DNA of 64,000 nt from Chloroflexota bacterium (lineage in GTDB: Bacteria > Chloroflexota > Limnocylindria > Limnocylindrales > CSP1-4), in the NCBI GenBank assembly GCA_026004015.1, contig BPIH01000001.1, positions 208,398 through 272,397 of the forward strand, read 5' to 3'. This document shows, in pieces, positions 6,565-37,385 of the stretch (position 1 is the first letter of the stretch; every line of letters begins with the position of its first letter). A model generated the notes under the pieces. It saw nothing but the letters and a program-made list of their open reading frames with translations, had not been told where the DNA came from and ran no database searches. The position numbers were made by a program, and so were the translations under genes.

Positions 6565-8042
6565 CGATCATCGCCGAAGCACCGACGCCGGCCCGGATCG
6601 TCTTCGGCACCGATGGCTGGCGAGCCCGGATCGCCGACGACTTCACCTTCGAGAACGTCCGCCGCTGTGCCGACGGCGTCGCCCAGGCCGTTCTGGCGGC
6701 CGGGAGTCGCGAGCGCGGCGTCGTCGTCGCCTACGACCGGCGTTTCGCCTCGGAGCACTTCGCCCAGGCTGCAGCCGAGGTCCTCCTCGCCCACGACATC
6801 CCGATCTTCTTCGCCGAGCGGGCCGTGCCGACCCAGATGTCGACCTACGAGGTCGTCGCTCGGGGGGCGGCGGCCGGGGTCGTCATCACCGCCAGCCACA
6901 ACCCGTGGACCGACAACGGCTTCAAGGTGAAGTCGCCCGAGGGGTCGGCGGCCGGCCCGGAGATGCTCGCCGTCATCGAGGCCGCCATCGCCGCGAACGC
7001 CGGGCAGCCGATCCCGCGGCGCCCCTTCGCCGAGGCCGAGGTGGCCGGGCTCGTCGAGCGCTTCGACCCGTACCCCGGCTACGAAGCCTTCCTCCGCCGG
7101 ACCCTCGACCTCGACGCCCTCCGGGCGGCCGACGTCCACGTCCTCGTCGAGCCGATGTGGGGTTCCGGGGCGGGCTGGATCCCGCGCCTCCTCTCCGGGG
7201 GGCGGATCCGGGTGACCGAGATCCACCAGGAGCGGAACCCGTACTTCGGGGGCGTGAACCCGGAGCCGATCCGACCCCACGTCGACGAGGCCCTCGGTCT
7301 CCTCGCCCGGGGCGGCTTCGATCTCGGGCTCCTCCTCGACGGCGACGCCGACCGGGCCGGCGCGGCCGACGAGCGGGGCGTCTTCATCCACCAGCTCCAG
7401 GTGACGGGGCTCCTCATGTACTACCTTGCCGAGTACCGCGGCCTTCGCGACCCGGTCGTCGTGAGCGTGAACAACACGTCCATGGCGCGCCGCCTCGGCG
7501 AGCGGTACGGGATCGCCGTCCACGAGACCCCGGTCGGCTTCAAGTACATCGGCCCGACGATGATCGAGACGGGGGCGATGATGGGCGGCGAGGAATCGGG
7601 CGGCTTCGGCTTCGGGATGCACCTCCCCGAGCGGGACGGGATCTACGCCGACCTGCTCCTCCTCGACCTCTTCCTCCGCGAGCGGGCGGCCGGCCGGTGG
7701 CCGGTCTCGCGGGCCATCGAGCACCTCCACGAGATCGCCGGGCCCTCCTTCTACCGCCGGGTCGACGTCCACGTCGAGCGCTCGGCGTACGACGGGGTGA
7801 AGGAGCGCCTCCTCGTCGGCCTCCGGGAACGGAGCCCGGCCGATCTCGACGGCCTGCCCGTCGTCCGTACTCAGCCCCTCGCGACGAACGACGGCTACAA
7901 GTTCTTCACGCCCGACGGGTCATGGCTCCTCGTGCGGACGAGCGGCACCGAGCCCCTCGTCCGGATCTACGCCGAGGCGTCCTCGGCCGAGCTTCGGGAC
8001 GCCCTCATCGCCGCCGGCGAGCGGCTCGTTCGGGGCGGCTGA
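6561..8042 (+). CDS. phosphomannomutase/phosphoglucomutase (alpha-D-phosphohexomutase family)
   Basis: Active-site loop ITASHNPWTDNGFKV, metal loop LLLDGDADR, sugar loop GGEESGGF. The start overlaps the preceding stop (ATGA). Confidence 0.9.
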   Translation: MTIIAEAPTPARIVFGTDGWRARIADDFTFENVRRCADGVAQAVLAAGSRERGVVVAYDRRFASEHFAQAAAEVLLAHDIPIFFAERAVPTQMSTYEVVARGAAAGVVITASHNPWTDNGFKVKSPEGSAAGPEMLAVIEAAIAANAGQPIPRRPFAEAEVAGLVERFDPYPGYEAFLRRTLDLDALRAADVHVLVEPMWGSGAGWIPRLLSGGRIRVTEIHQERNPYFGGVNPEPIRPHVDEALGLLARGGFDLGLLLDGDADRAGAADERGVFIHQLQVTGLLMYYLAEYRGLRDPVVVSVNNTSMARRLGERYGIAVHETPVGFKYIGPTMIETGAMMGGEESGGFGFGMHLPERDGIYADLLLLDLFLRERAAGRWPVSRAIEHLHEIAGPSFYRRVDVHVERSAYDGVKERLLVGLRERSPADLDGLPVVRTQPLATNDGYKFFTPDGSWLLVRTSGTEPLVRIYAEASSAELRDALIAAGERLVRGG

Positions 8043-8445
8043 TGGCCGGGGCGACGACGGCGGGGACCGGAGAAGCCGGCCGACCGGCCGGCACCATCGT
8101 CCCCAAGCCCTGGGGCCACGAGCTCATCTGGGCTCACACCGACCGCTACGTCGGCAAGATCCTCGTCATCGAGGCCGGCAAGCGGCTCTCCCTCCAGTAC
8201 CACGAGCGGAAGGACGAGGCGATCTACGTGATCTCGGGTCGGCTCCGGCTCCACCTCGGCGAGGAGGGCGGGGCGGTCCGGGCGGAGGAGCTCGGCCCGG
8301 GCGAGTTCCGGCACATCCCGCCGGGCGCGTCCACCGCTACGAAGCGATCGAGCGGGTCGAGCTCTGCGAGGTCTCGACGACGGAGCTCGACGACGTCGTC
8401 CGCCTCGAGGACGACTACGGCCGCGAGGGGACGAGCGCCCCGTAG
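8042..8445 (+). CDS. cupin-type mannose-6-phosphate isomerase domain protein, one frameshift near 8329
   Basis: KPWGHELIWAHTDRYVGKILVIEAGKRLSLQYHERKDEAIYVISG...FRHIPPGA, then in the -1 frame VHRYEAIERVELCEVSTTELDDVVRLEDDYGR*. ATG 8042 overlaps the TGA of the mutase gene. Confidence 0.7.
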
Positions 8446-8559
8446 GTTCTGACCCGGGGAGCGCTCCGGCGGGCAGGGCGGCGAACCGCCGCCGGCCATC
8501 ACCGATCGAGGGCCGCCGAGCGAGGCCGTCCTCGCTCGACCGGTGCGGGCAACGTCCGG

Positions 8560-8958
8560 TCAGCCGCGGTCGACGACTTCGATCGGGCAGCGAGGCCCAT
8601 CAGCCCGGGCGAGGCGCGCGTCGAGGGTGACGAGCGACGCGCCGAGCGCTTCCGCCAGGGCGACGTAGAGGGCGTCCCAGGCGCGGAGCGTCCGCCGCAA
8701 CGCCCAGGCCCGCTCGAAGAGCGGGCGGTGGTCGTATCGCTCGCCCGGCCAGGCTGCGAGGTCGACGACGGCGAGGGCGGCTGTCGTGGCGTCGATGGCA
8801 CCTCGGAGATGATCCCGGCGGATGAGGCTGAGGACCTCGGCATCGATGAGGTGGGGAGCGGCATGCTCGTCGTCGGCCGCCAGGCGTGCCCGAACCGCCT
8901 CGGCCGAGGGACCCTCGACGAGGACGTCGTACAGGCTGGAAGCGTCAACGACGAGCAT
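8560..8958 (-). CDS. vapC: PIN-domain ribonuclease toxin (VapC-like)
   Basis: MLVVDASSLYDVL...HLIDAEVLS...DALYVALAEALGASLVTLD: acidic PIN residues in the canonical order. Overlaps the upstream antitoxin gene. Confidence 0.8.
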   Translation of the reverse strand: MLVVDASSLYDVLVEGPSAEAVRARLAADDEHAAPHLIDAEVLSLIRRDHLRGAIDATTAALAVVDLAAWPGERYDHRPLFERAWALRRTLRAWDALYVALAEALGASLVTLDARLARADGPRCPIEVVDRG

Positions 8959-9190
8959 CCGGCCACGGCCCACGGATCTCGTCGAGGGCCTGCACGGCGT
9001 CGACGTCCCGGGTCGGAATCGGCCGTCGACGGGTTTGCTCGAGCCATTCCTCGATCGTCGGTCGCCTCGCCAACCGCGCAGCTTCGCGGCGCAGCAGTTC
9101 GGGGACCGTCACGCCGGCTGCAGCGGCTCGTCGGGCGAGGGCTCGATAGACGTCGTCGTCGATGTCGCGGATCTGGACCGTTCGAGGCAT
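8945..9190 (-). CDS. vapB: antitoxin, FitA/ribbon-helix-helix-like (VapB-type)
   Basis: 81 aa beginning MPRTVQIRDIDDDVYRALARRAAAAGVTVPELLRRE. Lies immediately upstream of and overlapping the PIN gene. Confidence 0.7.
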   Translation of the reverse strand: MPRTVQIRDIDDDVYRALARRAAAAGVTVPELLRREAARLARRPTIEEWLEQTRRRPIPTRDVDAVQALDEIRGPWPDARR

Positions 9191-28703: not shown

Positions 28704-28814
28704 CGCCTGCCTCGTGCGAGCGCGTCGGAGCCGGGGGCTCGTTCGATCCGCACCATCGTAGTCGACGGGGCGCGGGCCGGGACGGACGGTCCGGTTGTTC
28801 GGCGATGGTATGGT

Positions 28815-29063
28815 ATGCGCATGCTCACCGAACGAACCCAGGTCCTCCTCTCCCGCGACCAGGTCGAGCGCCTCAAGCGGATCGCGGCCCGGGACCGCCG
28901 CTCCCTCGGCTCGGTGATCCGGGAGGCGGTCGATCGGTACCTCGAGACGGTGCCGGAGCGGCGCTCCGAGGCTGCCCGCCGGATCACCGCGATGGAGCTT
29001 CCGGTCGCCGACTGGGAGACGATGAAGGCCGAGATCCTTCGCGGTCGCCTCGGCTCGGGATGA
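28815..29063 (+). CDS. vapB: ribbon-helix-helix antitoxin (VapB/CopG-like)
   Basis: MRMLTERTQVLLSRDQVERLKRIAARDRRSLGSVIREAVDRYL. The stop overlaps the ATG of the downstream PIN gene (ATGA). Confidence 0.7.
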   Translation: MRMLTERTQVLLSRDQVERLKRIAARDRRSLGSVIREAVDRYLETVPERRSEAARRITAMELPVADWETMKAEILRGRLGSG

Positions 29064-29485
29064 CGGTCTTCGTCGACACGGCGATCCTCATGTACGCGGC
29101 CGGGGCCGAGCACCCGCTGCGGGCGCCCTGCCGGGCCATCGTCCGGGCCGTCGGGGCGCGGACGATCGAGGCGGTGACGAGCACCGAGGTCGTCCAGGAG
29201 CTCCTCCATCGCTACGCCGCCATCGGTCGCCGGTCGGAGGGGACGGCCCTCGCGACGGCGACCCTCGATCTCTTCGCCCCGGTCCTGCCGATCACCCACG
29301 CCCTCATGCGCCGGGTCCCGGAGCTCCTCGAGCGGTTCCCGGCCCTTTCGGCCCGCGACGCGATCCACGTCGCGACGTGCCTCCACGAGGGGATCGCCGA
29401 GATCGTCAGCCCGGACCGGGCCTTCGACGCGGTCCCGGGCCTGCGGCGGATCGACCCGGCGGCGATGCCGCTCCCGTCGGCCTGA
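29060..29485 (+). CDS. vapC: PIN-domain toxin (VapC-like)
   Basis: MTVFVDTAILMYAAG...TSTEVVQELLH...ARDAIHVATC...IVSPDRAF. Confidence 0.8.
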   Translation: MTVFVDTAILMYAAGAEHPLRAPCRAIVRAVGARTIEAVTSTEVVQELLHRYAAIGRRSEGTALATATLDLFAPVLPITHALMRRVPELLERFPALSARDAIHVATCLHEGIAEIVSPDRAFDAVPGLRRIDPAAMPLPSA

Positions 29486-29611: not shown

Positions 29612-30664
29612 TCAGCCGTTCGCCGGGTCGCGGAGCCCCATCTTCGCCCGGACCTCGGCCATCGTCGCCTCGGCGATCGGCCGGACCCGCTCGGCGCCCG
29701 CGGCGAGGATGGCGTCGACCTCGGCGGGGCGGGCCATGAGCTCGAGGTACCGTTCCGGGCCGGCGCGTAGTGGGCGATGATCCGCTCGGCGAGGAGCCGC
29801 TTCGTGTCGACGCAGCCGGTCCGGGCCGTCCGCTCGCCCTCCCAGATCGTCTCGTAGTCCGGCCCGAAGAAGCGGTGGAGCTGGCAGACGTTGCAGACCT
29901 CCGGGCGCCCGGGGTCGGTCCGCAGGATCCGCTGGGTGTCGGTGACCATCGACATGACCTGCTTTCGGATCACGTCCGGCTCGGCGAGGATGTCGATGGT
30001 GTTGCCGATGGACTTGCTCATCTTCTCGGACGCCGTCGGTCCCGAGGACGACCGGCGCCTCGGTGTAGACCGGCTGCGGCTCGGGGAACGTCTCGCCGTA
30101 GCGGGCGTGGAAGGCCCGGACGATCTCCCGCGACAGCTCCAGGTGGGCGGCCTGGTCCTTGCCGACGGGGACGAGGGAGGCCTTGTAGAGGACGATGTCG
30201 GCGGCCTGGAGGACGGGGTAGGTGAGGAGGCCGTGGTTGACGTCCTCGGGCTGGTTCTGCCGCTTCTCCTTGTACGTCGGCGTCCGCTGGAGCCAGCTCA
30301 CCGGGGTCACGGTCGCCAGGAGCCAGGCGAGCTCGGTCACCTCGGGCCGGTGGGACTGGACGAAGAGGGTGCACTTCGCCGGGTCGAGGCCGAGGGCGAG
30401 GAGGGCGGCCGCCATCTCCCGGGTCTGGCGGCGGAGGCGCTCGGGGTCGTGGACGCTCGTGAGGGCGTGGTAGTCGACGATGCAGTAGATCGCCTCGTAC
30501 TCGTCCTGGAGGCGGACGTAGTTCCGGATCGCCCCGAGGTCGTTGCCGAGGTGGGGGACGCCGGAGGGCTGGATGCCGCTGAAGATGCGGGGTCGGGGCG
30601 GCACGGCGGCGGGGGCGGGCGGCGAGGCCTGCGCGGTCGGGGACGGGGTGCCGGAGGTCGTCAT
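29612..30664 (-). CDS. trpS: tryptophan--tRNA ligase, with two compensating frameshifts (~30032 and ~29756)
   Basis: N-terminal part has IFSGIQPSGVPHLGN (HIGH-type). The middle segment, carrying KMSKSIGNTIDI, lies in another frame (ORF 29212..30021). The C-terminus ERYLELMARPAEVDAILAAGAERVR is back in the first frame. Confidence 0.9.
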   Translation of the reverse strand: MTTSGTPSPTAQASPPAPAAVPPRPRIFSGIQPSGVPHLGNDLGAIRNYVRLQDEYEAIYCIVDYHALTSVHDPERLRRQTREMAAALLALGLDPAKCTLFVQSHRPEVTELAWLLATVTPVSWLQRTPTYKEKRQNQPEDVNHGLLTYPVLQAADIVLYKASLVPVGKDQAAHLELSREIVRAFHARYGETFPEPQPVYTEAPVVLGTDGVREDEQVHRQHHRHPRRAGRDPKAGHVDGHRHPADPADRPRAPGGLQRLPAPPLLRAGLRDDLGGRADGPDRLRRHEAAPRRADHRPLRAGPERYLELMARPAEVDAILAAGAERVRPIAEATMAEVRAKMGLRDPANG

Positions 30665-30746
30665 GGGTCGGGAGTGTAGCGGCCGAGTCCTCCGGTTCGG
30701 TGGGCTGCTCGCCCATGTCGGTTGCTCTCGCGGCGGCGCCGCAGTT

Positions 30747-31814
30747 TCAGCGCTCCTTCAGGAGGGCCGCCGGCGAGCCGGCTCCGGCTAGCCATGCACC
30801 GAGCGGGCCCACGAGAACCGTGACCGCGGCCGCGAGCGTCGAAGAGCGAAGGGCAAGCCATGCCGCGTCTACACTCGGCGGCCCAGTTCGGAGCGCTCCG
30901 GCAGTGATACCCCAGAGCGATCCGACCAGCAGGGCGCCCGACACGAGCACGATCGCCTCGACCTGGTGCATGAGGAGGAGTCCGAGACGCCCGAGGCCGA
31001 AGGCCCGGTAGAGCGCAGCGTCCGCGCGGCGAAAGAGGGCGGCGAGGGCAAGCACCGTCGCCCCGACGAGCCCCACCAGGACCCATGCCCAGCGCTGCGG
31101 CCGACGCGCGAGCATCTCTCCCGGGTTGACGTCGAAAGCCCCGCGCGACACGACCGGTCGTGCCTCTACCTCGTCCGGCGCGAAGTGGGCGGGTAGCCAG
31201 CCGAGCGCAGCTGGAAGGGCATTCGGGACGAGCTCGACCCAACACTGGGCGAGGCGTCCGCTCGGGGCGACAGGATCGAGGATCACCCGGGCCGCGAGTG
31301 GATTCCTCTCAGACGGATCGGCAACGGTCACCGGTGCAGCCGGCATCCCGTCCAGCCCCAACCAAGCGCCATCTCTGAGCCCGATCTCCTGGGCTACGGC
31401 CCGGCCGACCACGTACCCAGGCCGTGAGGGACTCGATGACCGGGGATCCCAGACCCGAACGATGTCGCCCGTGATCTCCCAGAGCTCGAAAGGAACCCTG
31501 GGCGCGTTCAGCGCGCTGCGCTGACCGGCCCGTCGCCAGCCGCCCGCGCCGGAGACGAAGGGCCGCCAGCGCAGCTCCTCACAACGGTCGGCAGCGAGAC
31601 CGTCGGGGCCGTCGACGACCGCGACTCGGCCACCCGCCGCGTCGAACCGCCGAACCTGATCCTTGACGTCGGCGGCGGTCGCCAACTCGGCCGAGACCAG
31701 GCCGGCAACCATGGTGCTCAAGGCAATGCCCACTACGCCCCCGCGAATTCCGGACGCGCCGAGGTTCGCGAGCGCCTCGTGGACGATGGTGCGGAGCCGC
31801 CAACCGCTGCTCAT
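30747..31814 (-). CDS. FtsX/MacB-like ABC transporter permease
   Basis: N-terminal TM, ~200-aa extracytoplasmic domain, then three C-terminal TMs. 4-nt overlap with the ATPase gene. Confidence 0.65.
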   Translation of the reverse strand: MSSGWRLRTIVHEALANLGASGIRGGVVGIALSTMVAGLVSAELATAADVKDQVRRFDAAGGRVAVVDGPDGLAADRCEELRWRPFVSGAGGWRRAGQRSALNAPRVPFELWEITGDIVRVWDPRSSSPSRPGYVVGRAVAQEIGLRDGAWLGLDGMPAAPVTVADPSERNPLAARVILDPVAPSGRLAQCWVELVPNALPAALGWLPAHFAPDEVEARPVVSRGAFDVNPGEMLARRPQRWAWVLVGLVGATVLALAALFRRADAALYRAFGLGRLGLLLMHQVEAIVLVSGALLVGSLWGITAGALRTGPPSVDAAWLALRSSTLAAAVTVLVGPLGAWLAGAGSPAALLKER

Positions 31815-32455
31815 GACAGTGCTCTGAGCCGCCCGTCGACGAGCTCGTAGCGACGGCGACAGCGATCGGCCAGCAACGGGTCGTGGGATGCGACCACGAT
31901 TGCCGTCCCCGCCGGGCGGGCTGTGAAAAGGGCGTCGGCAACGAGCAAGGACGTGGAGCGGTCCAGCTGCCCGGTGGGTTCGTCCGTAAGGACATATCGC
32001 GGTCGCCCCACCAGGGCACGGGCCACGCCGACGCGCTGCGCCTCGCCGCCCGAAAGGGTCATCGCGGGTCGATCCTCCAATCCCCTCAACCCGACCGTCT
32101 CCAGCATGGTCCGAGCACGCTCCCGCGCCTCGTCAACGCTGTAGCCCAAGGCGAGGAGGCCGAGTGCCACGTTGTCGAGGGCCGTCCGCCGGCCGAGCAG
32201 GTTGATGGTCTGGAAGATCCAACTCAAGGAGCCGGAGGGCAGTTCTTCGCGTCCCACGACGAAGCCGTCCAGGACGACTTCACCCTCGGTCGGTTGAAGC
32301 AAGCCACCCATGATGCTGAGGAGGGTCGTCTTGCCGGAACCCGACGGACCAACGATGGCGAGCGTGTCGTCTGCCTCGACCTCCAGGTCGACGTCGACGA
32401 GCACTATTGGTCCGTTGCCGTATCGGTGCGCGACTCCGCTCACCCTGAGGGACAT
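31811..32455 (-). CDS. ABC transporter ATP-binding protein (MacB/LolD-like)
   Basis: Walker A GPSGSGKTTLL, signature LSGGEAQRV, Walker B YVLTDEPTGQLD. Confidence 0.9.
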   Translation of the reverse strand: MSLRVSGVAHRYGNGPIVLVDVDLEVEADDTLAIVGPSGSGKTTLLSIMGGLLQPTEGEVVLDGFVVGREELPSGSLSWIFQTINLLGRRTALDNVALGLLALGYSVDEARERARTMLETVGLRGLEDRPAMTLSGGEAQRVGVARALVGRPRYVLTDEPTGQLDRSTSLLVADALFTARPAGTAIVVASHDPLLADRCRRRYELVDGRLRALS

Positions 32456-33534
32456 GCCGGTTCGTCCAGAATGTCCGCTGGATTCTCGAGAACGGCGGCC
32501 GAGGTCGCCGCGGGCCGGACAAATGTGACGCCCGCCCGGCCGCCCACGACCTCGACGGTCGTCGGCTCGTATGTCCCTCCGCGCTCGACCCAGACGCAGA
32601 GTCGTCCGTCCGCCCCCGACATCACGGCGCTCGCCGGCAGGGCCCAGACGGCGAGTGGCTGCGCCAGCCGAACAGAGCCCGAGGCGCTATCCGTGGCTGG
32701 CGCGAGGATGCGCGATAGGCTTGCGAGGCCGTTTCCGTCGAGTCCGCCCGTCGTCCCATCCAGGGGGAGCGCGGCGTCTCCGATCTGGAGGATGTAACGA
32801 ACTCCTGGTTCCAACGTGAGCGGCCCGCCGTCGACCCGCTCGAGGTCGACCGAAGCGAGCTCAGGAGCCCCTGCCGCTATCGCCGTCCCGGCCGGCGGGG
32901 CCGGCGTCCCGGGCCGGAGCGCCACCGTGGCCACCTCGAGCTGCTCCGTCGGCAGCCACACGAACCAGGCCGGATCGAAGACATCGACCGGCTCCAGGAG
33001 GCCGAGGTCCGCGGTGAGCGCAGCGATCGCGCGCCTCGTCACCGGGCCAACGCGGTCGTTCTCTTCCGGTCCCGCCGCGAGATAGCCGAGCCTGACGAGG
33101 GCGTCCTGGAGCCAGCCCACGTCGGGCCCACGATCGCCGCTCGACAAGGCGCGGAAGAACGGCTGCGGGGTGTGGACGGCGAGTCGTACCACGCCGTCGA
33201 GCGAGGCTACACGGTCTCCGCTGCGTATCGTGCCGCCTGGCTCCAGCCAGACCGCGCCGACCATGCCCGACCAAGTTGGGGCGTAGAGGGTGGGGCCATC
33301 CTGCCATCGCAGCTTGGCGACCACCCCTGTGCGGTCGTCGAACTCTACCAATCGGGCGGGCTGGACGAACGGCGCGGGCTCGCCGCCGACGTCGTCGAGC
33401 CGTTCCGCAGCGAGCAGCAGGCCGATGAGCGCGCCGGCCGGCACGCCGATGAAGAGCGCTGCGGCGGCCATCCAACTCAGCGGAGCGAGGTGTCTTCTAA
33501 CCCGGGCCAGGCGTTGGGGCATGGGTCGGTCCAC
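32440..33534 (-). CDS. membrane-anchored periplasmic-adaptor-like protein with peptidoglycan-binding domain
   Basis: N-terminal TM. PG_binding_1-like segment GDRGPDVGWLQDALVRLGYLAAGPEENDRVGPVTRRAIAAL. C-terminal beta-rich HlyD-like region. Overlaps the ATPase gene by 16 nt. Confidence 0.6.
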   Translation of the reverse strand: MDRPMPQRLARVRRHLAPLSWMAAAALFIGVPAGALIGLLLAAERLDDVGGEPAPFVQPARLVEFDDRTGVVAKLRWQDGPTLYAPTWSGMVGAVWLEPGGTIRSGDRVASLDGVVRLAVHTPQPFFRALSSGDRGPDVGWLQDALVRLGYLAAGPEENDRVGPVTRRAIAALTADLGLLEPVDVFDPAWFVWLPTEQLEVATVALRPGTPAPPAGTAIAAGAPELASVDLERVDGGPLTLEPGVRYILQIGDAALPLDGTTGGLDGNGLASLSRILAPATDSASGSVRLAQPLAVWALPASAVMSGADGRLCVWVERGGTYEPTTVEVVGGRAGVTFVRPAATSAAVLENPADILDEPACPSG

Positions 33535-33591
33535 GGCGGATGCTCCTCCGAAGATGTGCTGGGGGAACGGACTGGGGGCCAGCGCTCGTCC

Positions 33592-34179
33592 TCAGTCTCC
33601 CTCCCACGGCTCACACGGCGGAACCGCGTTGACGGCCTCCTCCACCGTTGGCGGGTCGGAGACGGGCAGACCGTGCTCTCGCGCGCACTCCCACGCCCGT
33701 TCGAGCCACTCCTGGATCTCCGCCTCCGTCGGAGCGAACTGATGGAGGAAGACCCACTCCACGGCGTAGGACCATTGGGCCTGGCAGCGGGCGTTCACCT
33801 CGCCGAAGCGATCCTCGGCATCGTTGCCTACGTGGGCGTTCAAGGTCAGCTTTAATCGCGGATCGAAACCCGGCAGGACGAGGACGTACCCGTCCGGGTA
33901 GCGCAGCGGCCCCTCGACATCGAAGCCCTCGTCGCGCATGCACTGGATGGCCGCCGAGAAGGCCCGCTCGTACTCGTCGAAGGTCACCTTCCCGTCGGCG
34001 AAGATGGCTTCCTGGAGCGCTCGGCCACCGACGTCCGGTCCGGGATCGGCAGGCAGTCGCCCACGGAAGACGATCGGCGTCGCGCTCGGGGACGGCACCT
34101 GCGAGCAGCCGATGCAGAGGGCTGCGACGGCGCCCAGAAGCGCGCGTCCGATTACGCGCCGCCGGTAGCAGCTCACCAT
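33592..34179 (-). CDS. probable secreted protein/lipoprotein, unknown function, Cys-rich
   Basis: Signal-like N-terminus ending ALCIGCS. Protein-like composition, lower-GC codon usage. Confidence 0.55.
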   Translation of the reverse strand: MVSCYRRRVIGRALLGAVAALCIGCSQVPSPSATPIVFRGRLPADPGPDVGGRALQEAIFADGKVTFDEYERAFSAAIQCMRDEGFDVEGPLRYPDGYVLVLPGFDPRLKLTLNAHVGNDAEDRFGEVNARCQAQWSYAVEWVFLHQFAPTEAEIQEWLERAWECAREHGLPVSDPPTVEEAVNAVPPCEPWEGD

Positions 34180-34203
34180 TACTGATGCCCGGGCAGTGGG
34201 CGC

Positions 34204-34614
34204 TTACCAGGCGTGCGGTTGCTGGGTCGGTGACCAGGAGTTCCACCAACTTTCCATGGCTCTGTGCTGACTTGCCACCGCCGTCGAACCGACGAGGTTG
34301 CGGAACACCCTGAAGTTCGCCGGGAAGTCGGGGACTCCGACTGCGTCGGACCAGAACCAGCCAGAATCTAGAGGGCCGGGATTCGATTTCAGGCGGACAG
34401 CGAGGTGCCTACATGCCCCGTTATAGTTCGTGGTCCGCCCGAAGGCCATGTTGTTCTCGGCCCCATGGTCCCCAGAGAACAGGCACGTGGTGTACTGGTT
34501 GGCGTAGCTCCATGGGCCTCCTGCACTGACAGCTCCGCCGAGCGCGATCCCATGCAGGATGAGACTCATCACGACACCGACCGACAGGGGACGGAAGGGA
34601 TGCAGCGCCGACAT
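34204..34614 (-). CDS. small secreted protein (mature ~105 aa, two Cys, Trp-rich), unknown function
   Basis: Signal peptide VVMSLILHGIALGGAVSAGG, then PWSYANQY.... Lower-GC region. First gene of a five-gene same-strand cluster. Confidence 0.55.
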   Translation of the reverse strand: MSALHPFRPLSVGVVMSLILHGIALGGAVSAGGPWSYANQYTTCLFSGDHGAENNMAFGRTTNYNGACRHLAVRLKSNPGPLDSGWFWSDAVGVPDFPANFRVFRNLVGSTAVASQHRAMESWWNSWSPTQQPHAW

Positions 34615-34744
34615 TCACCCACCTCCCGACAGGTCAACGCAGCCAGCCGACCGGTCAGCCCGTCATGATCCGTACTCACATGTCGAGCCGATACACTGAT
34701 TATCCCGTGGCTGTCAATACCAACCCTCCGGAGCTGATTGATCC

Positions 34745-36160
34745 GTGGCTCCGGCGGACGTGTCAGCGGGCGCGAGTATCCGCCATCCTTGGACGAGCGG
34801 CCCGGTGAGGCGCTGGCGCTCAGGTCCTTGGGGCGGCACGACGCATGCCGATGACGATCGCCCCGGGCGGGGGTCGCTCCAGTACCATTCGGCCGATGAT
34901 GGCGACCCCCGACCTGATCGACCCCGCGCCGCCCGCCGCGGAGCCGGCGCCCTGCCCGGAGCCGGTGCCCTCCCCGGAGCCGGTGCCCGACTGGCGCCCG
35001 CCAAGGGCACCCCCGGCGAGGCTCCCTCGACGACCGCGCCCGTCGACGCTCCCGAGCGTGCCCCCGCCCGTGCCGCCCGGCTCCGTCCCGCGCGCCGGCC
35101 GCTCCGGGTCGCCGTCCTCGGGGCCGGGACCGTCGGCCGCCCCGTCATCGAGGCGCTCCTCGCCCAAAGCACCCGCCTCACCGACCACGACGGGGCGCCC
35201 CTCGAGCTCGTCGGCGTCGCCGTCCGCGATCTCGACGGGGCCCGGGCGGCCGGCATCCCCGAGGACCTGCTCACCGACGCCCCGGCCCACCTCGTCGCCG
35301 ACCCCGGAACCGACCTCGTCGTCGAGCTCATCGGCGGCGACGAGCCGGCGCGAACCCTCATCGTCGCCGCCCTCACGGCCGGCAAGGCCGTCGTCACGGC
35401 GAACAAGCACGTGATCGCTCACCACGGACCGGACCTGGAGCGCCTGGCCCGGGCGTCCGGGGCGCCGCTCCGCTTCGAGGCCGCCGTCGGGGGCGGGATC
35501 CCGATCCTCGGGCCGCTGGCCGCCGACCTCGCCGCGAACGAGATCAGCCGGGTCCGGGGGATCGTGAACGGGACGACGAACTTCATCCTCACCGAGATGG
35601 CGACCGCCGGCCGCGACTACGCCGCCGCCCTGGCCGAGGCCCAGGCGGCGGGGTACGCCGAGGCCGATCCCTCGGGCGATGTCGAGGGCTTCGACGCCCG
35701 GAACAAGCTCGTCATCCTCGCCCGCCTCGCCTTCGGCGTCTGGCTCGAGCCGCGGAGCGTCGTCCGGCGGGGGATCGTCGGGATCGACGCGGCCGACCTG
35801 CGACGGGCCGCCGCCGAGGGCTACGCCATCCGGCTCGTGGCTCGGGCCGAGGGGACACCCGAGGGGGTCGCCGCCGCCGTCGAGCCGTGCGCGGTCCCGC
35901 TCGATTCGCCCCTCGGCCGAACCGACGGCGTCCTGAATCGGATCGAGATCGAGGGCCGCCCGGTCGGCCGGGTCGCCTTCGAGGGTCCGGGCGCCGGCGG
36001 GGCCGCGACGAGCAGCGCCGTCCTCGGCGACTGCCTCGCCGTCGCCCGAGGCGCCGGGAGCACGTGGGCGGGTCTCCCGCCGGCCGGCTGGGCCGAAGCG
36101 GTCGCGGCACCGACCTCGGCGGGCTGCTTCGCCGACCGTTACCCGATCCTCGAGCCGTGA
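34745..36160 (+). CDS. hom: homoserine dehydrogenase (core from ~35099; true start uncertain)
   Basis: [51 protein letters not shown]. No convincing in-frame start lies close to the core. An alternative ATG (34896) is in another frame. Confidence 0.85.
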
Positions 36161-37257
36161 TCGGCCGTCCCCCCGCCGCTGCAACGGCCGGCCGGGCCGG
36201 CGGGCGCCCGAGCCTCGTCGAGCGCTACCGGGCCTTCCTGCCGATCACCGAGGCGACCCCCGTCGTCTCTCTCGGAGAAGGCTTCACGCCCCTCGTCCAC
36301 GCCCGCCGCCTCGGCGCGGCGCTCGGCCTCGCGAACCTCTACCTGAAGCTCGAGGGCCTGAACCCCACCGGCTCGTTCAAGGACCGCGGCATGGTCGTCG
36401 CCGTCGCCAAGGCCCTGGAAGCCGGTGCGGAGGCGATCGTCTGTGCCTCGACCGGCAACACCTCGGCCTCGGCGGCGGCCTACGGGGCGGCGGCGGGCCT
36501 CCGGGTCGTCGTCGTCCTGCCGAAGGGTCAGATCGCCCTCGGCAAGCTCCTCCAGGCCCTCGCCGCCGGGGCGACGGTCATCGCCGTCGACGGGAACTTC
36601 GATGCCGCCCTTCGGATCGTCCGGGCCCTCGCCGAGGAGGAGCCGGGGCGGGTGACCCTGGTGAACTCCGTGAACCCGCACCGCCTCGAGGGCCAGAAGA
36701 CCGGCGCCTTCGAGGTCTGCGACGATCTCGGCCGGGCCCCGGACGTCCTTGCCATCCCGGTCGGCAACGCCGGCAACATCAGCGCCTACTGGGCGGGCTT
36801 CCGGGCCTACGCCGGTGCCGGGAGGATCGCGGCCCTCCCTCGGATGTGGGGCTTCCAGGCCGCCGGGGCGGCCCCGATCGTCCGAGGGGCACCGGTCGAG
36901 CGCCCCGAGACGATCGCGACGGCGATCCGGATCGGGAATCCGGCCTCCTGGGCGAAGGCCGTCGCCGCCCGCGACGAATCGGGCGGTCGGATCGACGCCG
37001 TCACCGACGACGAGATCCTCGCAGCCTACCGGGACCTCGCCCGGCTCGAGGGGATCTTCTGCGAGCCCTCGTCGGCGGCGAGCGTCGCCGGGGTCGCGAA
37101 GGCCGCCCAGGCCGGGGCGCTCGATCCGGAGGCCCTCGTCGTCTGCGTCCTGACCGGGAACGGTCTCAAGGACCCGGTGACGGCCGAGCGGATCGTCGGC
37201 CCGGTCGTCGAGACGGCGGCGACCCTCGAGGCGGTCCGGGAGGCGCTCGGGTGGTAG
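36157..37257 (+). CDS. thrC: threonine synthase
   Basis: GTG 36157 overlaps the hom [16 protein letters not shown]-lysine motif, STGNTSAS, and full-length family similarity. Confidence 0.92.
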
Positions 37258-37385
37258 GTGCGGGCGAGGTCGGCCCGGGCTGCTGTCCACCGTCGGCGGA
37301 CACGTCGGCGCCCTTGCCGCGACCTCGCGTCCGCCGTCCGGCGTTGCCGGCCGCGCCGGCCTGATCCGGTTCCGAGGAGGTCCCC

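Follow-up and report, generated by a model that had tools for sequence, protein, structure and literature searches.

An inserted five-gene cassette in a Chloroflexota genome, encoding a predicted MacB-like pump, as a possible bacterial competition locus

Genes and borders of the inserted block

The subject of this study is a group of five genes, here called g1 to g5, found between trpS and hom in a 64,000-nucleotide stretch of Chloroflexota DNA (the window), which is part of contig C1 of a 1.37-Mb metagenome-assembled genome (MAG; 55% complete, 73% G+C). The five open reading frames (ORFs) are arranged head-to-tail on the minus strand at 30747-34614, and the gaps from g1 to g5 are 24, 57, -16 and -4 nt, which indicates that g1-g5 form one operon-like unit. 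An initial annotation of this DNA had described five same-strand ORFs with short gaps or overlaps between trpS and hom, and all of them were recovered where it had placed them. It had also correctly read the architecture as a Sec-dependent small protein, a Cys-containing lipoprotein, a peptidoglycan (PG)-binding adaptor resembling HlyD and the membrane fusion proteins (MFP), an ATPase and an FtsX-like permease. The features are listed below.

30685-34874, minus strand: whole inserted cassette of 4,190 bp, consisting of the five genes and 260 bp of their own upstream DNA (blastn against a same-genus genome)
34615-34874, minus strand: cassette-specific upstream region (Shine-Dalgarno site and TTGACA...GGGATAATCA motif, read from the sequence)
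34204-34614, minus strand: g1, 136-aa precursor of a predicted small secreted beta-sandwich protein (ORF, N-terminal hydrophobic segment, AlphaFold2 model)
33592-34179, minus strand: g2, predicted 195-aa lipoprotein (ORF, lipobox ...CIGC followed by S)
32440-33534, minus strand: g3, predicted 364-aa membrane-anchored MFP-like adaptor (N-terminal transmembrane segment 23-41, lipoyl-like half, PG_binding_1, CusB-like beta-barrel)
31811-32455, minus strand: g4, 214-aa ABC ATPase of the LolD/FtsE/MacB (type VII) clade (ABC_tran 4e-31, NCBIfam)
30747-31814, minus strand: g5, putative 355-aa divergent FtsX/MacB-type permease (1+3 transmembrane topology, extracytoplasmic domain)
29612-30664, minus strand: trpS, one flank of g1-g5
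about 35099-36160, plus strand: hom, the other flank of g1-g5

The cassette is absent from relatives of the host. In all eight same-family relatives, one of which belongs to the same genus and has a TrpS that is 94% identical, trpS and hom-thrC are direct divergent neighbours with none of g1-g5 between them. Homology to the same-genus contig (G419:C79) is confined to window positions 29614-30684 and 34875-37299 as determined by blastn, and the 4,190 bp of the cassette are replaced there by 405 bp. It is this empty trpS/hom site that argues for a foreign origin of the block, as composition alone would not prove it. The lower G+C reported in the initial annotation is real but modest. While the window as a whole has a G+C of 0.735, g1 has 0.62 and the 130 nt upstream of it 0.585, and g1 together with its upstream region (0.61) falls in the lowest 0.4% of equal-sized windows across the 1.37-Mb genome. 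For the entire block (0.691) the corresponding figure is the lowest 4.8%. The G+C at third codon positions (GC3) of g1-g5 is 0.75-0.84, corresponding to the 3rd to 29th percentile of a crude ORF set with a median of 0.88; in this set g2-g5 are low yet inside the 10th to 29th percentile, and only g1 is a clear outlier. A strong compositional anomaly of the whole block was rejected on these values, the clear outliers being g1 and its upstream region. Transposon-like borders were rejected as well, as 30685-34874 has no meaningful direct or inverted repeats, just imperfect GC-rich chance matches, and neither a tRNA nor an integrase was seen within the block in the ORF and sequence listing.

A Shine-Dalgarno site, GGGAGGTG, lies 6 nt before the ATG of g1. 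Further upstream of g1, in three of five loci, namely the window (34700-34730) and the homologous loci L027 and L008, there is a TTGACA-like hexamer with GGGATAATCA, TATGATCA or GGGATATCCA (GAT(A/G)AT-like) 7-9 nt further on. Since this spacing is too short, the putative motif is not a standard sigma-70 promoter, and it could be an operator or an alternative-sigma promoter. A consensus scan gave no sigma-70 promoter site, and the single terminator-like site is on the wrong strand for an intrinsic terminator.

The g1 precursor has a hydrophobic N-terminal segment (residues 12-30), which is followed by a conserved VSAGGPW. The mature protein would be about 105 aa and 11.7 kDa with a pI of 8.1, seven Trp and two conserved Cys, and most members of the family are basic. 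AlphaFold2 models g1 as an all-beta sandwich (pLDDT 83 overall and about 92 for the mature part). The family is small, with just 30 clusters found in a profile search of 1.84 billion representative proteins, and a scan of metagenome contigs with a 12-sequence g1 alignment gave just two short loci. Among 33 members, W35, G48, H50, T61, S115, H117 and H134 are invariant. No Pfam or NCBIfam match was found for g1, the 33-sequence profile had no PDB sequence match at E<=10, and the model had no PDB match at E<=1e-3 in Foldseek, the best being an FN3 domain with E 0.066. The best 50 of 471 Foldseek neighbours, which are non-significant, include carbohydrate-binding and FN3-type sandwiches. A known non-toxic family, which the initial annotation had named as a finding that would speak against its reading, was sought among Pfam, NCBIfam and PDB sequences and folds and gave no match. 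A viral or phage origin of g1 was also considered and rejected, as Foldseek against BFVD was empty at E<=1e-3.

In g2, the hydrophobic segment (residues 9-27) ends in the lipobox, and at least 90% of 46 homologues retain the lipobox Cys, C25; with a signal peptide of this kind, g2 is predicted to be a lipoprotein. The mature part would be about 171 aa and 19 kDa with a pI of 4.4. Four further Cys are conserved besides the lipobox Cys, and D62, E69, C80, G85, C132, C165 and P177 are invariant among the 46 homologues. The family has at least 50 clusters, and every database name in it is "hypothetical protein". The AlphaFold2 model is of high confidence (pLDDT 91, pTM 0.80) and has an alpha/beta fold, for which the best Foldseek match in the PDB has E=3 and a TM-score of about 0.2, i.e., there is no known fold relative there. 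Searches of PDB sequences, Pfam and NCBIfam gave no match either. Thus, both g1 and g2 are unannotated families.

Hydropathy predicts a single N-terminal transmembrane helix (23-41) in g3. PG_binding_1 was found above the Pfam cut-off at positions 135-173 (E 2.2e-5) and was detected in five of six family members. A profile of the g3 family matched three kinds of PDB entry, namely CusB at 286-339 (E 4e-4), biotinyl/lipoyl domains at 73-103 (E 0.02-0.04) and a PG-binding domain at 116-168 (E 0.039). Biotin_lipoyl_2 was matched by one family member (E 7e-4), and the g3 orthologue of the type B cassette described below has weak RND-MFP_C/CzcB_C matches. The matches are weak but mutually consistent, and the combination of a membrane anchor, a split lipoyl domain and a beta-barrel points to an MFP. 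No coiled-coil or HlyD hairpin model matched g3 or its family members, and judging from the match positions, PG_binding_1 (about 116-173) would sit between the two lipoyl halves, where adaptors usually have the alpha-hairpin. Literature searches found no adaptor with PG_binding_1 in place of the hairpin that is linked to a cognate secreted protein, and nothing specific on PG-binding MFPs or on the g1-g5 gene combination. Similar PG_binding_1/HlyD architectures are presumably annotated in actinobacterial genomes.

The envelope of the host fits such an adaptor. Omp85/BamA was found in none of 21 genomes of the host family and OEP/TolC in two of the 21, none in this genome, while both searches were positive in all seven diderm controls, and the lineage is therefore taken to be monoderm. 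A TolC-docking hairpin would have no partner in a monoderm lineage, whereas a wall-binding domain makes sense.

The ATPase g4 matches ABC_tran in Pfam with E 4e-31 and, as read from the sequence, has intact catalytic motifs (Walker A GPSGSGKT, Q-loop, LSGGEAQR, Walker B VLTDEP and H-loop ASHD). Its top NCBIfam matches are LolD, FtsE, YbbA, DevA and MacB (1e-46 to 1e-32), with LolD at 7e-46 (156.5 bits) and FtsE at 2e-45 (154.9 bits). As every NCBIfam score is under the equivalog cut-off, g4 is not assigned a specific orthology. An anti-phage defence system was considered and rejected, as the PADLOC scan gave just generic ATPase matches for g4.

The permease g5 has four transmembrane segments by hydropathy (27-45, 243-261, 279-305 and 327-345), and the extracytoplasmic loop is about 197 aa. 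Pfam FtsX (PF02687) matches five of five family members at E<=10, the best with 3.1e-5, while g5 of the window matches in region 244-342 with E 1.9, which is below the cut-off. The best PDB matches of the family profile are weak, i.e., the MacB-like permease 5XU1_M of S. pneumoniae (E 0.15, transmembrane segments 2-4) and MacB 5GKO (E 2.8). MacB_PCD (PF12704) was not matched by g5 or four relatives at E<=10, and the extracytoplasmic domain is either too divergent for PF12704 or of a different kind. Judged from their sequences, g3-g5 probably constitute a tripartite set of the type VII ABC kind, MacAB-like but divergent.

Homologous loci, cassette types and g1+g2 arrays

The same five genes in the same order are found in different neighbourhoods at L002/L003, L005/L006/L009, L008, L022 and L027, and the flanks differ among L002, L005/L009, L008, L022, L023 and L027. 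Together with the absence of the insertion from the eight relatives, this bears out the conservation and mobility of the five-gene block, which the initial annotation had put forward for checking. By the names attached to the homologues, the hosts are Chloroflexota and Acidimicrobiia MAGs. The g1 family was found in one of 401 genomes of the phylum and full-length g5-type permeases in two of the 401, both adjoining a g1+g2 pair. All three loci that were found with the permease as seed have g1+g2 beside the pump. In G373, g1+g2 is convergent to and downstream of the pump and still adjacent to it, which suggests that the g1+g2 pair and the pump are linked as two sub-modules. Every homologous locus with enough flank retains g1 and g2; loci lacking these two genes, which according to the initial annotation would contradict its reading, were sought and none was found among such loci, including the three permease-seeded ones.

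At L008 (1970-4569), the type A cassette lies directly 3' of genes for an RHS-repeat/YD-shell protein and an Abi_C-domain protein. These are other inter-bacterial conflict genes.

The cassettes can be divided into three sequence types, A (this window), B and C. Type B is found in L023/L024 and as a second cassette of this same genome, at G000:C3:156048-159881 (L018 6049-9882). This second cassette has a G+C of 0.684 and encodes a secreted 130-aa protein with four Cys, a 181-aa lipoprotein, an adaptor, an ATPase and a permease. The relation between type B and type A g1 is marginal (hhalign probability 41%, with the core C-x-F/W-x-x-H...A..T...C..V.LR), and hmmsearch gives type B g1 per-sequence E values of 1e-5 to 1e-7. 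Type C, from an Acidimicrobiia MAG, is clearly homologous (E 1e-19). The lipoboxes of type B and type C g2 are classical (L-A-A-C and L-A-G-C). Between the types, g1 has diverged the most and is barely detectable, followed by g2 with 23-26% identity, and the pump has diverged the least, with 32-38% identity for g3 and g5 and 49-51% for g4.

Some loci have more than one g1+g2 pair. In an Acidimicrobiia MAG (L025; JBBDWO010000026.1, 275-9883), three tandem g1+g2 pairs accompany a single pump, one before and two after it, and at least four further g2-like genes are present without g1; of these, one is frameshifted (8365-9169), one is inverted (7913-8554) and one is located upstream on the other strand (275-1231). 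The paired copies are 54-71% identical for g1 and 66-74% for g2, with the same rank order of divergence. In L026, a 42-aa g1 remnant with g2 is followed by the pump and then by a full g1+g2 pair. The pump itself can be lost. In L002 (10082-11595) and L003, each from a different sample, a stop codon interrupts Walker A of the ATPase (GPSG*KST) and the permease ends after residue 163, while g1, g2 and g3 are intact. A dead pump beside intact g1 and g2 is compatible with g2 as the main immunity factor.

Proposed function, precedents and alternatives

We propose, by analogy and with a probability of about 0.45, that the cassette encodes a secreted antibacterial protein (g1), a lipoprotein immunity factor (g2) and a wall-anchored MacB-like export/protection pump (g3-g5). 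The toxicity of g1, its binding by g2 and its role as pump substrate are all points that we infer. The block would then be a horizontally acquired competition cassette. According to this proposal, g1 would be released via Sec outside the cytoplasmic membrane as a basic, Trp-rich, disulfide-containing 11.7-kDa beta-sandwich. Its antibacterial action would be directed at the envelope of related cells, and we can only guess at the membrane or a cell-wall precursor as the target. The acidic lipoprotein g2 would reside on the outer face of the producer's membrane as the cognate immunity protein, which neutralises g1 by binding. g4 and g5 would form a MacB-type (type VII, mechanotransmission) machine that expels its substrate from the membrane surface and not across the membrane, and g3 would be the pump adaptor, in which the TolC-docking alpha-hairpin is replaced by a PG-binding domain in a monoderm lineage. 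We propose that this domain fixes the pump assembly in the wall. The pump might thereby push g1 off the producer's membrane and through the wall, which would provide both export and a second layer of self-protection.

The toxin/immunity assignment is drawn from the obligatory pairing of a basic secreted protein with an acidic lipoprotein, the duplication of this pair, the surplus g2 copies and the sporadic, insertion-type distribution. The insertion, the rarity, the varied flanks, the occurrence in both Chloroflexota and Acidimicrobiia and the low G+C describe an accessory and mobile cassette and support the proposal. Duplicated pairs, orphan g2 genes, decay and co-divergence are array behaviour typical of toxin/immunity pairs. 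The linkage of g1+g2 to the pump at all three permease-seeded loci, the divergence of g1 between cassette types beyond that of g2 and of the pump, and the monoderm envelope also count in its favour. The bacteriocin, immunity and export idea of the initial annotation is indirectly supported by the insertion absent from relatives, the g1+g2 duplication, the g2 copies without g1 and the basic g1/acidic g2 pair, but its comparison with lactococcin 972 is not upheld, as discussed below.

The proposal has precedents among known pumps. In Gram-positive bacteria, MacB-type pumps that have an adaptor shield the producer against the Sec-dependent or secreted peptides it makes, as in YknXYZ/SDP and AS-48EFGH, and MacB-type pumps export Sec-delivered proteins of up to about 10 kDa, as in Aat/dispersin and MacAB/STII (PMC5985334). 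Gram-positive MacAB-like pumps with adaptors are common, few of them have a known substrate, and the role of the adaptor where there is no outer membrane is an open question (PMC5985334). YknWXYZ of Bacillus resembles the cassette in having a separate ATPase (YknY), a permease of the FtsX/MacB type with four transmembrane segments (YknZ) and a membrane-anchored MFP adaptor (YknX) in an organism that has no outer membrane, and YknX binds peptidoglycan in vitro (PMC5985334). From the outer face of the membrane, the pump acts on the Sec-dependent cannibalism peptide SDP, which has a disulfide bond and is secreted by the cell itself (PMC5985334). However, the toxin gene is outside the ykn operon and there is no lipoprotein partner, while YknX keeps its alpha-hairpin and is without PG_binding_1, and YknW has no counterpart in the cassette. 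The sequence similarity of solved members to g3 and g5 is marginal.

In AS-48EFGH of Enterococcus faecalis, the pump genes are clustered with a secreted bacteriocin, enterocin AS-48, and a separate immunity gene, and the pump is needed for full self-protection (PMC5985334). Unlike g1, AS-48 is a circular peptide of 70 aa that has dedicated maturation genes; immunity to it is conferred by a small membrane protein and not by a lipoprotein, and the pump has no PG-binding adaptor. Aat/dispersin (Aap, CexE) of E. coli and MacAB-TolC/enterotoxin STII are cases where a type VII machine exports a Sec-delivered folded protein of about 10 kDa, starting at the outer side of the inner membrane. The gene for the cargo is linked to the pump genes, and dispersin consists of two three-stranded sheets (PMC5985334). 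These systems differ from the cassette in that they are diderm with a TolC-like duct, that Aat needs an acyltransferase and that the cargo is not toxic to bacteria, and they have neither a lipoprotein partner nor a PG-binding domain. In the LanI/LanFEG immunity to nisin and subtilin, a surface lipoprotein binds the product and an ABC pump clears the membrane. This gives two layers of self-protection, a lipoprotein and an ABC pump, as in our proposal. However, LanFEG is a transporter of the ABC-2 type and not MacB, the product is a modified peptide, and g2 resembles no solved protein in sequence or fold.

Several points weigh against the assignment as a competition cassette. By the searches of Pfam, NCBIfam, PDB and BFVD, g1 resembles no bacteriocin or toxin known so far. 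Type A g1 proteins are 57-76% identical with many invariant residues and evolve no faster than g3 or g5, and such strong conservation agrees equally well with a toxin and with a conserved role in structure or binding. The three invariant His together with Ser/Thr of type A g1 could form a metal or catalytic site unrelated to killing. Loss of the pump with retention of g1 in L002/L003 implies that the pump is dispensable to its carriers. Additionally, all cassette data are metagenomic and the sample is small; most loci were found with g1 or g2 as seeds, which biases the co-occurrence counts and leaves the three permease-seeded loci as the unbiased ones. The host MAG has indel problems elsewhere, in trpS, and fine ORF details are at some risk.

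The conservation of g1 within type A would suit an alternative function as a non-toxic wall or surface beta-sandwich, e.g., a glycan- or peptidoglycan-binding protein that changes surface properties, which the pump places in or beyond the wall as in dispersin export, with g2 as an extracytoplasmic holdase or assembly factor. The size of g1 is that of dispersin (10 kDa), it is Trp-rich, and its mature N-terminus begins with Gly. The adaptor has a PG-binding domain, the non-significant Foldseek neighbours include carbohydrate-binding and FN3-type sandwiches, and MacB-type export of the Sec-delivered dispersin is a precedent (PMC5985334). However, such a function leaves the extra g2 genes without g1, the duplicated g1+g2 pairs and the decayed copies unexplained, and no AatD-like acyltransferase is present. 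The rarity (1-2 of 401 genomes) and the insertion at a housekeeping site also favour a dispensable trait of the conflict type, although not decisively, and we consider the surface-protein function unlikely. Placing the pump at the centre, g3-g5 might instead be a resistance or envelope-stress module of the MacAB, YknXYZ or BceAB type, which clears an external antimicrobial (a peptide, a lipid II binder or similar) from the membrane surface, with g1 and g2 as accessory extracytoplasmic binding or sensing proteins. The LolD/FtsE/MacB clade of g4, the FtsX topology of g5 and the MFP-like g3 agree with this, and resistance is the role for which MacAB-like pumps of Gram-positive bacteria are mainly known (PMC5985334). 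Yet the pump was never seen without g1+g2, neither in the permease-seeded loci nor in the two of 401 genomes, and no two-component sensor is consistently adjacent, and the flanks differ at every locus. The persistence of g1, g2 and g3 beside an inactivated pump in L002/L003 would be odd if the pump were the functional core, and multiplied g1+g2 pairs are unexpected for accessory sensors. A resistance module is therefore distinctly unlikely in our assessment.

Very unlikely, in our opinion, is a release pathway similar to Lol or Aat in a monoderm, where LolCDE-like g4/g5 would take g2, alone or in complex with g1, out of the membrane, and the PG-anchored adaptor would carry it across the wall, onto the cell surface or into the medium. 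g1 and g2 would then be a released two-component effector, and not a toxin restrained by a resident immunity protein, which we regard as equally doubtful. Aat is reported to export a lipidated protein in work on Aat/CexE (eLife 2021). The lipoprotein g2 is always present, g5 has the LolC/E-MacB topology with four transmembrane segments and an extracytoplasmic domain of ~197 aa, and LolD is the best NCBIfam match of g4, although below the cut-off. However, g4 scores just as well with FtsE and stays under every equivalog cut-off, a carrier resembling LolA or LolB is absent, and g1 is a small sandwich without a LolA match. Several g2 paralogues per pump, and g1 itself, would be left without a reason.

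Taking up the likeness to lactococcin 972 (Lcn972) drawn in the initial annotation, one could read g1 as a lipid II-binding protein distantly homologous to Lcn972 and the ABC genes as a dedicated export/immunity system, but we regard this as highly improbable. There is a superficial likeness, as both are Sec-dependent, unmodified, beta-rich secreted proteins, and the genes found together at the lactococcin 972 locus (lclA) likewise include, beside such a protein, an ABC ATPase from the broad clade of g4 and a membrane protein related to FtsX. The mature N-terminus of g1, G-G-P-W-x-Y, and its aromatic C-terminus may resemble those of Lcn972 as well. In addition, g4 matches TIGR03608 at 1.9e-41. 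This match of 141.8 bits is, however, far from the cut-off of 254.85 and below the LolD and FtsE scores, and the Pfam, NCBIfam, PDB profile and Foldseek tests of the family were all negative. Lactococcin_972 (PF09683) was matched by neither g1 nor any of 12 family members at E<=10, and NCBIfam gave no match to TIGR01653/TIGR01654 for g1 (E<=1) or g5. Lcn972 is in the PDB, yet the g1 profile does not retrieve it at its E<=10 threshold, and the Lcn972 fold (2LGN) is absent from the best 50 of the 471 weak Foldseek PDB matches of the g1 model. The loci also differ in that Lcn972 loci have a large membrane protein with multiple transmembrane segments, which is of another architecture than g5, and that the adaptor and the lipoprotein are found only in the present cassette. 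The hidden Markov model checks proposed in the initial annotation gave no match to Lactococcin_972, TIGR01653/TIGR01654, MacB_PCD or the HlyD hairpin model.

The cassette is of interest as the likely substrate of a pump is encoded in the same mobile unit as the pump, and as g3 would represent an explicit solution for a monoderm wall, with a peptidoglycan-binding domain in the usual place of the TolC-docking hairpin. If g1 is antibacterial, it would found a class of its own among protein bacteriocins, Sec-dependent and about 12 kDa in size, with an immunity lipoprotein whose fold has no PDB match. The cassette would also count as one of the earliest systems of this kind to be proposed in Chloroflexota and Acidimicrobiia, bacteria that are abundant in soil and water and mostly uncultured. 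If the Lol/Aat-like release were true, the cassette would represent a pathway dedicated to releasing lipoproteins through a Gram-positive-type wall, the first of its kind. The natural variants, i.e., the three types, the duplicated pairs, g2 without g1 and the loci with a dead pump, make the compact cassette well suited to studying how folded proteins are handled by type VII ABC machines.

Neighbouring genes

The adjacent trpS is read in two frames, with residues 1-213 and the last ~47 in one frame and the middle ~90, including KMSKS, in another. The frame shifts are located near 30022-30025 and near 29750, and the N-terminal part is separated from the KMSKS segment by 4 nt here and by 3 nt, in frame, in relatives. 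These shifts are either a pair of MAG assembly indels or the mark of a pseudogene.

Downstream of trpS, an apparent small pair of a ribbon-helix-helix antitoxin and a PIN toxin (VapBC-like) is found at 28805-29485 (plus strand) and in the 28860-29063 region, as recognised from the translations. One ORF of the pair reads "...LSRDQVERLKRIAARDRRSLGSVIREAVDRYL..." and the other, PIN-like, reads "MTVFVDTAILMYAAGAEHPL...".

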